Notes under the pieces: generated by a model | What the model saw: the letters and a program-made list of their open reading frames with translations, nothing else | Database searches by the model: none | What the model was told of the DNA's origin: nothing | Program-made: the position numbers and the translations under genes | From: a phage | DNA: 64,000 bases | Reading direction: 5' to 3' (one strand) | Assembly: GCA_037574385.1 (NCBI GenBank) | Contig: GCA_037574385.1_4529.1 | In this document: positions 293-35,730 of the stretch, piece after piece | Numbering within the stretch: the first letter of the stretch is position 1 | Layout of the letters: each line of letters begins with the position of its first letter

Positions 293-2379
293 TATCCTTG
301 GACAAATTTAAACGGAACCGATTCCAAATCCATTAAAGATGCTAACAGTTTCAATCCTTTAGGTGCACTGTTTATTTCTACGAATGAGGCAAAAGATACC
401 GGCTCATCTGATTCGATTTCACCCGTCATAGCAACCACCTCGCCTGTTTCCATGAGAACATCACCGTCGTAAATGACTGCTTCATCCAACTGGTCAGAGG
501 ACATGACTTCGGCTTGAATAAATTTAAGGTTGGATTCTAAACCTGCACCAGTGTCAGATGACGCATCTGTAATTTTATTTATCTGCAAGAGAATGCCTCT
601 AGGCAAAATAATTTCTTGCTCATTAGGGTGATTACTCAACTGTCCTGGATAAATCACGTTAACTTTATGAGCACCATCAATAGCCCATCCAACGTTAACA
701 CGGATTTGTTCTGGTGCATGCATAGCTGTTCTTACTTGACTAGGAGAAATAGTAACACCTTCGTCATTATTGTCAATGTTAAGCTCTTTGCGAACTTCTT
801 CAGGAGCAAGTCCAAGGGCAACGTTTTCTTTAAACCCGCCAAAAATAATAGGAGCTAATGAAGTAGAAACATAGTTTCTGAAGTAGAATACCTTATTTTT
901 AACCATTGCTTCATAAATAGGCATTCTGATAGACTGAGCTCTATACAACGTTAGTCCTTCAGGTAAACGGTCTCCGTTTAAAAACGCTGAATCAAGACCA
1001 TCAATAGCGCGTTTAACTTCATCTTCATCTGCAACATCGTAAAAATCTGGTTTATAACGTCCTAACAACATATTATTGATATCGGTATACGCAGAAGAGG
1101 CATATTCACGAATAGCTCGTTTTTCAGCAACAGAGTATTGTTTAGGGTCCCGATTCATTGTTATATTAAAGGTGCCTCTAGCCGATTCTCGTGCATAAGT
1201 ATACATCACATTAGACAAGAACGCTGATTTACGTTGTTTCCAAGTTTTTTCAGATACTTCAGCTAAAACGTCGTCAGCCAGTTGGAAATTATCTCGTCTA
1301 AAATCTTCAAACCATTCGTCTTTAATAGAGTCTGCAATTTCGTTTGCAGCTTCAACAAAAGCAGCTAATGCTTTAACAGATGTTGTTTTTTCGGTTTTAA
1401 TTTTCTTAGCAAACTTTTCTAAAGTTGGCTTAATAACACTACCATAAGAAACTTCATCAGCAAATCTAAAGGATTCATCAATACGATTATAAATCTTATT
1501 TTCGATATCAGCAACTAAAGTGCCTTTTGCTGTGGATGATGCTTGGGCTAGTACGATTTCATATGCTTCAGGAAGTAATTCGGCTGTAGCTGGGCCACTA
1601 ACTTCTTTAGCAGAATTTTCGTATTTCTGGAATAACTCACCTTCTTGGCGGTCAGCTTCTAAAGATTGGCTTGCTGCAATAGCACGACGAGAAATTTTAG
1701 TATGAGCAATAACAGGCTTATCTTTACGTTTTTCTTCTACAGCAGCAATAGAACCAGCGATAGCAGTTTCTTTGGTGACCGTTTCGCCGGTCTTTTTACT
1801 CACATAAACTTCGCCAACATCAGAATCTACTTTCGTGTACAACTCTGTGTTAATGTTAGGGATGCCTTTAATATCTTCAATGTTGGCATTTTTACGAACC
1901 ATCATCACATAGGTGTGTTTACCTGTGAATTGATACATTGCAGACAATACTTTAAAACGACCACCAGTTTTAGTAGAAACTAAACGAGCAAGAAGAGTTT
2001 GAAGCTGCTGACCACGTCCTTTCAATTTCTTGGTAGGGAATCGGAACAGAACTGCATCCATACGAAGAGCTTTAACCTGTTCATATACTGTATTGAAAAT
2101 GGTGTTGATTGCATCAATAGGAGCAGGACCAAGGCCATTTTTCAATTCAGCGAGATTACCCTTTTCAGACAGACTCATAATAACAACATGAGCATATTTA
2201 TCGCCAAGTTTAACTTGTTTTACAGCGTCGCCTTCAGAAAGGTAAGAGAATAAGCGAACTACGATGTTTGTATCGATATCACCAATTTTCCAGACTTGTG
2301 GAACTTTAGCTTTAGGGTTCAAATTGACGACAGGAAGACTGCCTTCAGATTCAAACACTTCATTTAATTGTTCAGACAT
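292..2379 (-). CDS. alt: Alt-like ADP-ribosyltransferase (packaged internal head protein)
   Basis: 695 aa; size and sequence character match T4 Alt (682 aa); lies immediately downstream of DNA ligase as in T4. Confidence 0.8.
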   Translation of the reverse strand: MSEQLNEVFESEGSLPVVNLNPKAKVPQVWKIGDIDTNIVVRLFSYLSEGDAVKQVKLGDKYAHVVIMSLSEKGNLAELKNGLGPAPIDAINTIFNTVYEQVKALRMDAVLFRFPTKKLKGRGQQLQTLLARLVSTKTGGRFKVLSAMYQFTGKHTYVMMVRKNANIEDIKGIPNINTELYTKVDSDVGEVYVSKKTGETVTKETAIAGSIAAVEEKRKDKPVIAHTKISRRAIAASQSLEADRQEGELFQKYENSAKEVSGPATAELLPEAYEIVLAQASSTAKGTLVADIENKIYNRIDESFRFADEVSYGSVIKPTLEKFAKKIKTEKTTSVKALAAFVEAANEIADSIKDEWFEDFRRDNFQLADDVLAEVSEKTWKQRKSAFLSNVMYTYARESARGTFNITMNRDPKQYSVAEKRAIREYASSAYTDINNMLLGRYKPDFYDVADEDEVKRAIDGLDSAFLNGDRLPEGLTLYRAQSIRMPIYEAMVKNKVFYFRNYVSTSLAPIIFGGFKENVALGLAPEEVRKELNIDNNDEGVTISPSQVRTAMHAPEQIRVNVGWAIDGAHKVNVIYPGQLSNHPNEQEIILPRGILLQINKITDASSDTGAGLESNLKFIQAEVMSSDQLDEAVIYDGDVLMETGEVVAMTGEIESDEPVSFASFVEINSAPKGLKLLASLMDLESVPFKFVQG

Positions 2380-11411: not shown

Positions 11412-11412
<1 letters not shown>
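11221..11412 (-). CDS. Hypothetical protein
   Basis: 63-aa ORF abutting pseT stop. Confidence 0.4.
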
Positions 11413-12498
<1,086 letters not shown>

Positions 12499-12499
<1 letters not shown>

Positions 12500-12798
12500 T
12501 ATTTTATTCCTAAGAAAGCTTCAAGAATACGAATGTTATGTTCGCGCCGGTCTTTATTAATTTCAGCAACGTTTTTATTAATTGACGTACTTCTAACGTT
12601 TGAAGAAATAAATTTAATCATATGACTTTTGAGTTGTTGCAAATCCAACCCTTTTTCTTTAGCAGCTTTACGAAGAGCTTTACCTGCTTCGTCTAGGGCC
12701 TTTGCTGCATCTTTATCATAATTGACAAGTGACATTCCACGGCAGATATCAATATACTCATCTGACCGTTTGATATAATTCTCTAGTAATGTTTTCAT
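12499..12798 (-). CDS. Hypothetical protein
   Basis: 99-aa ORF with PeSL-type early promoter (GTTTAC-N18-TATAAT) directly upstream. Confidence 0.5.
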
Positions 12799-12826
12799 TT
12801 AGATTTCCTCAATTATCCATAGGAGC

Positions 12827-12856
12827 ATTATACTCTGCTCCCGAGAGTTTGTAAAC
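12827..12856 (-). promoter_or_regulatory. Early promoter module
   Basis: GTTTACAAACTCTCGGGAGCAGAGTATAATGCTCC; near-identical to the module upstream of ndd. Confidence 0.55.
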
Positions 12857-13080
12857 TATTTTACTAAAGATTCAATATACTCATGAAGAGCTTTAGTCGC
12901 TACTGCCCACTTGTTCTGATATTCATTTTTCAGATTAGCACGAGACTGAACTAACAAGCGGTCGTTAGTCGGAGGCAAAGATTCTAATCGTTGAATCTGA
13001 CGGCCATAAATCATAGCCGCCATTTCAGAGTCATAGATAAGTCCTTTAAGGTATTCATGCTGTTCTTTAGTCATTGACAT
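12856..13080 (-). CDS. Hypothetical protein
   Basis: 74-aa ORF. Confidence 0.45.
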   Translation of the reverse strand: MSMTKEQHEYLKGLIYDSEMAAMIYGRQIQRLESLPPTNDRLLVQSRANLKNEYQNKWAVATKALHEYIESLVK

Positions 13081-13361
13081 TTTTCCTCTTTTAAACCACT
13101 ACGATAATAACATAACATAGTCTTCTGGTCATGTACATATCTTTTTACGTCGTTTAACCAGATACGAAATTCTTGAGAGTCTTCAAATGGCATTCCAACC
13201 CATGGATTACCATCAATAACCTTTACCTGCCATTTCTGGTTATATTCAACAATAGATTCAGGCCATTGCGGATGTAAAGTTTCTTTAGGGCTTAAGGGCA
13301 CATCTTGGGCACATCCAGCCAAAATGCCAATAGATAATACAACTGCGGTTAATTTAATCAT
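13071..13361 (-). CDS. Outer-membrane lipoprotein, o-spanin candidate (Rz1 equivalent)
   Basis: 96 aa; signal peptide with lipobox LAGC; immediately downstream of and 4-nt overlapping the i-spanin candidate; T4 spanins (pseT.3/pseT.2) map to this neighbourhood. Confidence 0.55.
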   Translation of the reverse strand: MIKLTAVVLSIGILAGCAQDVPLSPKETLHPQWPESIVEYNQKWQVKVIDGNPWVGMPFEDSQEFRIWLNDVKRYVHDQKTMLCYYRSGLKEEKCQ

Positions 13362-13714
13362 TCTGAGAGCTTCCTGAGGTCTTCTGCAAAGGAATCGAAG
13401 GACCTGTTGATTTGTTTTTCAACCAATCCTGGTTTACTTGCCACCACGTTCTTCTTCTTCGAATCCTTACGGAGCTTTTCATTTTCAGCCTTAAGTTGGT
13501 CAACTAAAACACGGTTCTTATAAGTCATTTCTTCGATTGACTGATATTGAACTTTGAAGTCGTCTAATACTTTAGCATTGTTTTTAGCAGTCTCTTTAAC
13601 AGAAGCCAATTCAGTATTCAACGAATCAACTTTGTTGTTTAAGACAACTATTGTTACAGTAGAAACTAGAGCAAAAGCTGCTACTATAGCATAAATCGGA
13701 TTTACTTTAAGCAT
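13358..13714 (-). CDS. Inner-membrane-anchored coiled-coil protein, i-spanin candidate (Rz equivalent)
   Basis: 118 aa; N-terminal TM segment (IYAIVAAFALVSTVTIVVL) followed by charged coiled-coil-like periplasmic region. Confidence 0.55.
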   Translation of the reverse strand: MLKVNPIYAIVAAFALVSTVTIVVLNNKVDSLNTELASVKETAKNNAKVLDDFKVQYQSIEEMTYKNRVLVDQLKAENEKLRKDSKKKNVVASKPGLVEKQINRSFDSFAEDLRKLSE

Positions 13715-14202
13715 GTTTTAATAATCTCAATGATTTCATCTCGGGATAATCCATTGATAAGAACGGTTTTCAAACCATCACACTGGATTTTGTACGATTC
13801 AAACAATACACACAACTCTTCTGCTGTATGATACGGGCTTGAAATTCCGAGGCGGTTGAATTTGTCGGTAAGAGGGTCGCAAATAATGTAGAATTTTATA
13901 CCTGCGATATGTACGTTTGGTTGACTAATATTAATGAACACATTAGCGTCATATTTAGTCAAATTGTTTTGAAGAAATTCTACCATGGCATTAACTGCTT
14001 CCGGCATCGCTTCGCGTTTCTCTTCGGCGTATCGAGTGGAATACTCTTTTTGTTTTACTTTCTTTTTAAGATTTTTGGCCAGTGTAACACGGAGGTCAGT
14101 AAGATAACCAACTGGACGTCCTTTCTTAAAGACTCGGATTCCGTCAGTTGTGTCTCCAAAAGCGGTTACGACCATATCGTTAGTAATCAATTGCATATTC
14201 AT
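13702..14202 (-). CDS. Hypothetical protein; positional candidate for Alc (host transcription terminator)
   Basis: Tracked ORF 13702..14265 runs through the gene 63-proximal promoter; probable start is MNMQL at about 14202 after SD GAGGAGAAAATT, giving 166 aa (T4 Alc 167 aa). Identity rests on size and position only. Confidence 0.4.
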   Translation of the reverse strand: MNMQLITNDMVVTAFGDTTDGIRVFKKGRPVGYLTDLRVTLAKNLKKKVKQKEYSTRYAEEKREAMPEAVNAMVEFLQNNLTKYDANVFINISQPNVHIAGIKFYIICDPLTDKFNRLGISSPYHTAEELCVLFESYKIQCDGLKTVLINGLSRDEIIEIIKTCLK

Positions 14203-14233
14203 AATTTTCTCCTCGTGTTGTTGATAAAAGCCA

Positions 14234-14262
14234 TAGTAACACCTTCCTTGGTGTTTGTAAAC
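14234..14262 (-). promoter_or_regulatory. Early promoter module
   Basis: GTTTAC-N17-TACTAT then ATCAACAACACGAGGAGAAAATTATG. Confidence 0.5.
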
Positions 14263-14264
14263 CA

Positions 14265-15398
<1,134 letters not shown>

Positions 15399-35025: not shown

Positions 35026-35044
35026 ACGATAATACCTCTCAATT

Positions 35045-35052
35045 ATAAATAT
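35045..35052 (+). promoter_or_regulatory. Late promoter (TATAAATA) for holin t
   Basis: Exact TATAAATA immediately upstream of SD GGGAGG and the t start codon. Confidence 0.6.
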
Positions 35053-35058
35053 TGATAA

Positions 35059-35730
35059 ATGGGAGGTAATATGGCAGCACCAAAAGTATCATTTTCGCCT
35101 AGTGATATTTTATTTGGGTTGCTAGACCGCATTTTCAAAGATAACGCCTCTGGAAATATTCTTATTTCCAGAGTTGCTGTTGTAGTTCTTTTGTTCCTAA
35201 TGGCACTAATATGGTACAAAGGGAGTATTTTTATGGATTATTACGTGAGGTCGAAATATGATACTTACACAGAAGTAATTCAAAAAGAAAGAAATACACG
35301 ATTTGAATCTGCGGCTTTAGAACAACTACAAATAGTCCACGTCACATCAAGGGCGGATTTTAGTTCGGTGTATTCTTTCAGACCTAAAAATCTAAATTAT
35401 TTCGTCGACCTTATTGCGTATGAAGGTAAGTTACCTAGCACAGTAACTGAAAAATCTATGGGAGGATTTCCTGTCGATAAAACTACAGCAGAATATTCGG
35501 TCCATTTAAGTGGACTTCACTTTACTTCTAAAACAGATTTTGCTTTCTTACCTACCAAATCAAAAACTCCGGAACTGGCATATATGTATAGTTGTCCTTA
35601 CTTCAATTTGGATAACATATATGCTGGAACTGTTTCTATGTATTGGTATAAGGGGTCGGATGTGTTAAATGAAGAACGCTTGGCAGCAATATGCAACCAA
35701 GCAGCAAGGATATTAGGGCGGGCTAAATAA
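35059..35730 (+). CDS. t: Holin T
   Basis: 223 aa; close match to T4 T holin (SFSPSDILFG.LDR.FKDNA.G, YMYSCPYFNLDNIYAGT, AARILGRAK). Confidence 0.9.
   Translation: MGGNMAAPKVSFSPSDILFGLLDRIFKDNASGNILISRVAVVVLLFLMALIWYKGSIFMDYYVRSKYDTYTEVIQKERNTRFESAALEQLQIVHVTSRADFSSVYSFRPKNLNYFVDLIAYEGKLPSTVTEKSMGGFPVDKTTAEYSVHLSGLHFTSKTDFAFLPTKSKTPELAYMYSCPYFNLDNIYAGTVSMYWYKGSDVLNEERLAAICNQAARILGRAK

Follow-up and report, generated by a model that had tools for sequence, protein, structure and literature searches.

The pseT.3/pseT.2 gene pair of an RB69-like phage as a probable two-component spanin of the “separated” class

In Gram-negative hosts the third and final step of lysis is the work of spanins, and the T4-family pair PseT.3/PseT.2 is the paradigm of what is termed the “separated” genetic architecture. 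The T4 pair was placed in this class by Kongari et al. (2018, BMC Bioinformatics 19:326; PMC6139136), which is also the source of the T4 spanin experiments referred to here. Plasmid-expressed T4 pseT.3 and pseT.2 complement the lysis defect of lambda RzamRz1am, and both cysteines of T4 PseT.2 are essential, as the C87S, C98S and double mutants are lysis-defective (PMC6139136). A disulfide-linked PseT.2 dimer forms only with PseT.3 present, and the authors suggest that an intramolecular PseT.2 disulfide isomerises to two homotypic intermolecular ones (PMC6139136). For the PseT.3 family the predicted layout is a transmembrane domain (TMD), a helix alpha1 with coiled-coil propensity, a short linker and a helix alpha2, and for the PseT.2 family a variable linker followed by beta1-alpha-beta2, with a conserved region W47-R90 (PMC6139136). 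RB69 is named in both the T4 i-spanin family (40 members, Table 3) and the T4 o-spanin family (47 members, Table 4) of that census (Kongari et al. 2018, PMC6139136). The fusion model of spanin action was derived from work on lambda Rz/Rz1 (summarised in PMC5295617 and PMC6139136), a pair with the same logic, in which a type II inner-membrane protein, helical in its periplasmic part, works with an outer-membrane lipoprotein. Phage T1 disrupts the outer membrane with a single protein, gp11, a lipoprotein with an N-terminal lipobox and its own C-terminal transmembrane domain.

The stretch of phage DNA analysed here, called the window (64,000 nucleotides, contig GCA_037574385.1_4529.1), comes from an RB69-like Mosigvirus (Straboviridae) at 98-99% nucleotide identity. 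For a 2-kb query around the pair (12300-14300) the closest record was Shigella phage ESh27 (99.0% nucleotide identity), Escherichia phage RB69 stood at 98.2%, and 149 phage records covered at least 80% of the query. The initial annotation had proposed that positions 13071-13714 hold a candidate spanin pair equivalent to T4 pseT.3/pseT.2 and located where these map, in the pseT-63 interval, with a lipobox lipoprotein as the second gene and a 4-nt overlap between the two. These limits are exactly those of two minus-strand open reading frames (ORFs), the overlap is seen in the sequence, and the map position is borne out by alc and rnlA upstream and pseT.1 and pseT downstream. The features of the locus are as follows.

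14265..15389: rnlA (gene 63), upstream of the pair
within 13702..14265, minus strand: alc, upstream of the pair; longest ORF 187 aa, starting at the stop of rnlA
13358..13714, minus strand: pseT.3 orthologue, i-spanin; ORF of 118 aa, ATG start
13640..13696, minus strand: predicted transmembrane domain, i-spanin codons 7-25, IYAIVAAFALVSTVTIVVL (Kyte-Doolittle)
13358..13361, minus strand: pseT.3/pseT.2 stop/start overlap ATGA, 4 nt (from sequence)
13071..13361, minus strand: pseT.2 orthologue, o-spanin precursor and predicted outer-membrane lipoprotein; ORF of 96 aa, ATG start
13311..13322, minus strand: lipobox L-A-G-C, o-spanin residues 14-17 (pattern match VVLSIGILAGC)
13077..13112, minus strand: C-terminal o-spanin segment bounded by Cys84 (13112..13110) and Cys95 (13079..13077) (alignment)
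13071..13080, minus strand: start region of pseT.1 with two in-frame ATGs (ATGTCAATGACT)
12856..13074 or 13080, minus strand: pseT.1, downstream of the pair
12499..12798, minus strand: ORF of 99 aa matching phrog_2364 (function not assigned) over its full length, E 8e-49
12308..12499, minus strand: ORF of 63 aa, RB69ORF230c, matching phrog_8683, E 6e-42
11412..12311: pseT, polynucleotide kinase, downstream of the pair

On the minus strand the junction of the two genes reads GCTCTCAGA-ATGA-TTAAA, where pseT.3 ends with ...TCA GAA TGA, so that the TGA stop of pseT.3 and the ATG start of pseT.2 both lie within the ATGA at 13361..13358. The o-spanin gene is thus immediately downstream of the i-spanin gene with an ATGA overlap, which is the arrangement of the “separated” class. 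The initial annotation had spoken of “unimolecular-independent” i-/o-spanins, a non-standard term, the accepted one being two-component spanin of the “separated” architecture; the two-component architecture itself was read correctly.

The same neighbourhood was compared in eight other Straboviridae loci, drawn from Tequatrovirus, Gaprivervirus, Karamvirus, Jiaodavirus, Bragavirus, Krischvirus, Angelvirus and Slopekvirus. A pseT.3 homologue is directly followed by a pseT.2 homologue in all eight, and the order rnlA-(alc)-pseT.3-pseT.2-...-pseT is found in seven of them; at the Aeromonas (Angelvirus) locus pseT again follows downstream of the pair, but no rnlA or alc is annotated ahead of the pair. 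The overlap of the two genes measures 4 nt in seven of the eight loci and 10 nt in the remaining one (Aeromonas phage AsFcp_4). The interval from pseT.2 to pseT differs in gene content in every genus examined, and in the window it holds two small RB69-specific genes, the 63-aa and 99-aa ORFs, as an insertion between pseT.1 and pseT that T4 lacks. For the 12499..12798 ORF the RB69 RefSeq entry has only a 79-aa version (RB69ORF231c) and T4 has no gene here; the 99-aa version is called “putative homing endonuclease” in BASEL phage Bas46, and Pfam finds nothing in it.

Two start sites around the pair deserve a remark. The matches of alc to Pfam ALC and to phrog_1253 begin at residue 22 of the 187-aa ORF, and the protein is annotated with 164 aa in RB69 and 166 aa in Bas46; the true alc start is probably Met22 or Met24, which would put about 65 nt between rnlA and alc. 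As for pseT.1, the second of its two ATGs overlaps the o-spanin stop as ATGA (13074..13071) and is the start used in RB69, and the phrog_2347 match begins at residue 3, which fits this second ATG.

Both proteins of the window are 100% identical to their RB69 counterparts, PseT.3 (NP_861924.1) and PseT.2 (NP_861923.1), which RefSeq labels “Rz-like spanin”, and with the same gene order there is no difference from RB69 at the protein level. Against T4 the i-spanin shows 48% identity to PseT.3 (E 3e-33) and the o-spanin 69% identity to PseT.2 (E 5e-51), so the proposed equivalence to the T4 pair holds. In the PHROG collection the i-spanin matches phrog_739 (E 1.2e-34, residues 1-117 of 118) and the o-spanin phrog_812 (E 9.7e-43, residues 1-96), both described as “Rz-like spanin” in the lysis category. 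A Pfam scan gave no family at the gathering threshold for either protein and only sub-threshold coiled-coil and DUF matches. A tblastn search with the o-spanin found homologues in 1317 phage records, the most distant at about 30% identity; the hosts of these phages include Escherichia, Klebsiella, Enterobacter, Proteus and Aeromonas.

Short ORFs of this kind could in principle be chance open frames in AT-rich DNA with coincidental transmembrane and lipobox features, the more so as this genome is AT-rich and has many spurious ORFs on both strands. The PHROG matches just given, a homologue in 1317 phage records and the invariance of the functional residues (see below) refute this explanation, the probability of which we regard as practically nil. 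We assign the pair, with a probability of about 0.95, as the two-component spanin, of “separated” genetic architecture, in an RB69-like phage of the T4 type, its presumed lysis function being transferred by homology from T4. The pair is already known, being annotated in RefSeq and included in the published spanin census; the initial reading was right, yet it is an ordinary one because of these prior entries (PMC6139136). The window carries the RB69 allele of a textbook system and has little importance beyond correct annotation, and the practical value lies in the confirmation that a spanin pair is recognisable from raw sequence alone. GenBank records of many near-identical phages still call one or both genes “hypothetical protein”.

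The i-spanin has its best 19-residue Kyte-Doolittle window at residues 7-25 (mean 2.56), and is otherwise hydrophilic and charged (20 K+R, 16 D+E) and free of cysteine. In a single-sequence AlphaFold2 model (mean pLDDT 85) two helices span residues 6-88 and 96-117 with a break at 89-95 (VVASKPG), in agreement with the published TMD-alpha1-linker-alpha2 layout of the family. A single N-terminal TMD followed by a mostly helical remainder is what the general definition of two-component spanins (Summer 2007 / Kongari 2018) asks of the i-spanin, and an N-in/C-out topology is predicted. The initial annotation had called this gene product a membrane-anchored coiled-coil protein. The membrane anchor and the helical domain stand, but a crude heptad test of a/d positions did not support a coiled-coil, as 334 of 2000 shuffles reached the observed value; the label is owed to the helical model and to the published prediction for helix alpha1 in the T4 family (PMC6139136).

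In the alignment of the i-spanin family eight of nine members have a hydrophobic N-terminal stretch aligned with the transmembrane domain, as does JSE, the ninth, after correction of its start; the segment is kept while its sequence varies. The most conserved part of the protein is K94-P95-x-L97...N103-x-S105, and the invariant residues K94, P95, L97, N103 and S105 cluster at the linker/alpha2 junction, a pattern that would fit functional constraint on a hinge or on an element for partner binding. Two family members depart from the common form. In the phage JSE locus (EU863408.1, region 947..1761) the annotated PseT.3 has 88 aa and lacks a transmembrane domain, and an in-frame upstream ATG gives MSKLIYIVIISVLLGVGG... 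back, hence the deposited start is probably wrong. The i-spanin homologue of Aeromonas phage AsFcp_4 (1109..1495) ends in ...NADCIMGAKKCK with two cysteines that are absent from the cysteine-free enterobacterial PseT.3 proteins, a hint that disulfides may be arranged differently in the Aeromonas branch.

As the initial annotation had it, the second gene encodes a lipobox lipoprotein. The o-spanin N-terminus MIKLTAVVLSIGILAGC combines a basic n-region with a hydrophobic core and the lipobox L-A-G-C, and fits the PROSITE-style lipoprotein pattern. Signal peptidase II would cut at MIKLTAVVLSIGILAG|C, so that the mature protein is predicted to begin with a lipidated Cys17, and as the +2 position is held by Ala18 and not by Asp, Lol-dependent sorting to the outer membrane is predicted. 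For the remainder the family layout is reproduced only at low confidence: a single-sequence AlphaFold2 model (mean pLDDT 60) has strand 47-56, helix 63-78 and strand 84-95 in a beta-alpha-beta pattern, with Cys84 where two consecutive predicted strands begin and Cys95 where they end. These cysteines align with Cys87 and Cys98 of T4 PseT.2, and being confined to the o-spanin they would provide periplasmic residues suited to a homotypic disulfide. Across nine aligned members from different genera Cys17, Pro31, Pro34, Trp68, Cys84 and Cys95 are invariant, with overall identity among the homologues at 35-71%. Since the C-terminal half is hydrophilic (KD11 negative throughout) and a separate inner-membrane partner exists, a unimolecular spanin of the T1 gp11 type is ruled out for want of a C-terminal transmembrane domain in the o-spanin.

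The PseT.2 annotated in phage JSE is longer, with 150 aa, and has a strong AAGGAGG Shine-Dalgarno sequence and the ATGA overlap. Its lipobox Cys is preceded by 67 residues, among them an additional hydrophobic stretch. Either translation starts at an internal TTG or GTG, or the o-spanins of Krischvirus carry an unusual extension at the N-terminus.

Compared with T4 PseT.3/PseT.2 (UniProt SPAN1_BPT4 and SPAN2_BPT4) the window pair has the same domain plan, the same ATGA overlap and the same place between alc and pseT.1, and in both pairs the i-spanin is without Cys and the o-spanin has two C-terminal ones; the WLNDVKRYVHDQKT epitope region is identical. The i-spanins diverge in the transmembrane domain and in the N-terminal half of alpha1 (48% identity overall). 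The o-spanin of the window lacks three residues after the variable linker, which puts its cysteines at 84/95 instead of T4's 87/98. Beyond the pair, the two extra small ORFs between pseT.1 and pseT distinguish the window from T4. The distance to lambda is larger. Rz/Rz1 are embedded genes, Rz1 lying in the +1 frame of Rz, while those of the window are sequential and adjacent, no sequence similarity to the lambda proteins is detectable (no Pfam model at threshold), and membership in the Rz/Rz1 sequence family is rejected. The T4-family o-spanin is not proline-rich and is predicted to be structured (beta-alpha-beta), and the T4-family disulfides are in the o-spanin only and both required (PMC6139136). 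The relation of the pair to Rz/Rz1 is best described as one of functional analogy only.

Taking the T4 and lambda work as a guide, the pair may act as follows. PseT.3 would be anchored in the inner membrane by its single N-terminal TMD in N-in/C-out orientation, with alpha1, the short linker and alpha2 placed in the periplasm. PseT.2 would be exported, lipidated on Cys17 and cleaved by signal peptidase II, and the Lol system would then deliver it to the outer membrane's inner leaflet. By mutual binding of their periplasmic domains the two proteins would form a bridge through the peptidoglycan mesh, and Cys84 and Cys95 of the o-spanin could lock the complex as covalent homodimers. Once holin T and endolysin E have destroyed the peptidoglycan, the complexes would be free to move laterally, oligomerise and collapse, and in doing so they would fuse the inner and outer membranes and take away the last barrier to progeny release.

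The holin and its promoter motif lie elsewhere in the window.

35059..35730, plus strand: holin gene t, the unlinked lysis partner, matching phrog_860, E 4.8e-101
35044..35051, plus strand: late-promoter motif TATAAATA before holin t (motif search)

Gene t is on the plus strand and far from the spanin pair, as had been stated, at a distance of about 21.3 kb, and a tblastn search of the window with the T4 lysozyme sequence found no homologue of the endolysin gene e. We searched upstream of the pair on the minus strand for the T4 late motif TATAAATA, both exact and with one mismatch, and for the MotA-box middle promoter. The exact late motif is absent from the minus strand between 13715 and 22957, a stretch of some 9 kb ahead of the spanin pair; six exact copies occur in the whole window, no more than expected by chance. 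A MotA-like sequence occurs upstream on this strand only once, overlapping the start codon of pseT.3, and this match is probably due to chance; sigma-70-like matches are no commoner than in shuffled sequence.

A small phage-encoded predicted outer-membrane lipoprotein such as PseT.2, sitting among early/middle-type genes away from holin and endolysin and with no late promoter motif nearby on its strand, could also be read as a superinfection-exclusion or receptor-masking factor, with or without the membrane partner, like the Llp of T5 or the Cor lipoproteins. To our knowledge, exclusion lipoproteins are not expected to show lambda complementation, a co-conserved inner-membrane partner or an essential cysteine pair. 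The T4 orthologues, in contrast (69% identical for the o-spanin and 48% for the i-spanin), fully replace lambda Rz/Rz1 in lysis (PMC6139136), the helical inner-membrane partner is strictly co-conserved with the 4-nt overlap, and the essential cysteine pair is conserved, on which grounds we hold an exclusion role to be highly improbable.

The genes overlap by 13 nt at alc/pseT.3, by 4 nt at pseT.3/pseT.2 and by 4 nt at pseT.2/pseT.1 if the second ATG is used, and this chain suggests that alc, pseT.3, pseT.2 and pseT.1 are translationally coupled along one transcript. With this chain and no recognisable late promoter in the roughly 9 kb ahead of it, it is conceivable, with a small likelihood in our estimation, that the pair is made from early/middle transcripts, is pre-assembled across the envelope during most of the infection and has a second role before lysis, for example in envelope integrity during lysis inhibition. 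Early/middle synthesis as such would do no harm under the spanin model, because intact peptidoglycan would hold the complex in check.

The pair might also be a genuine spanin by descent with a minor part in lysis here, where the outer membrane ruptures without it in shaken culture or some other factor takes over, perhaps with an added role such as in lysis inhibition. Lambda spanin mutants are lysis-defective only when divalent cations stabilise the outer membrane, which speaks for this view. The spanin genes are in addition unlinked from t and e (PMC6139136). Against it, at least nine Straboviridae genera show strong conservation of both proteins with their membrane signals and cysteines, which argues for selection on the spanin function itself, and we give a minor role little chance.

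The best sigma-70-like match in the region is found at 12827..12855 on the minus strand (TTTACA, a 17-nt spacer and TATAAT; 11/12). It lies within the 57-nt gap just downstream of pseT.1, and from it the downstream ORFs and pseT could be transcribed separately.
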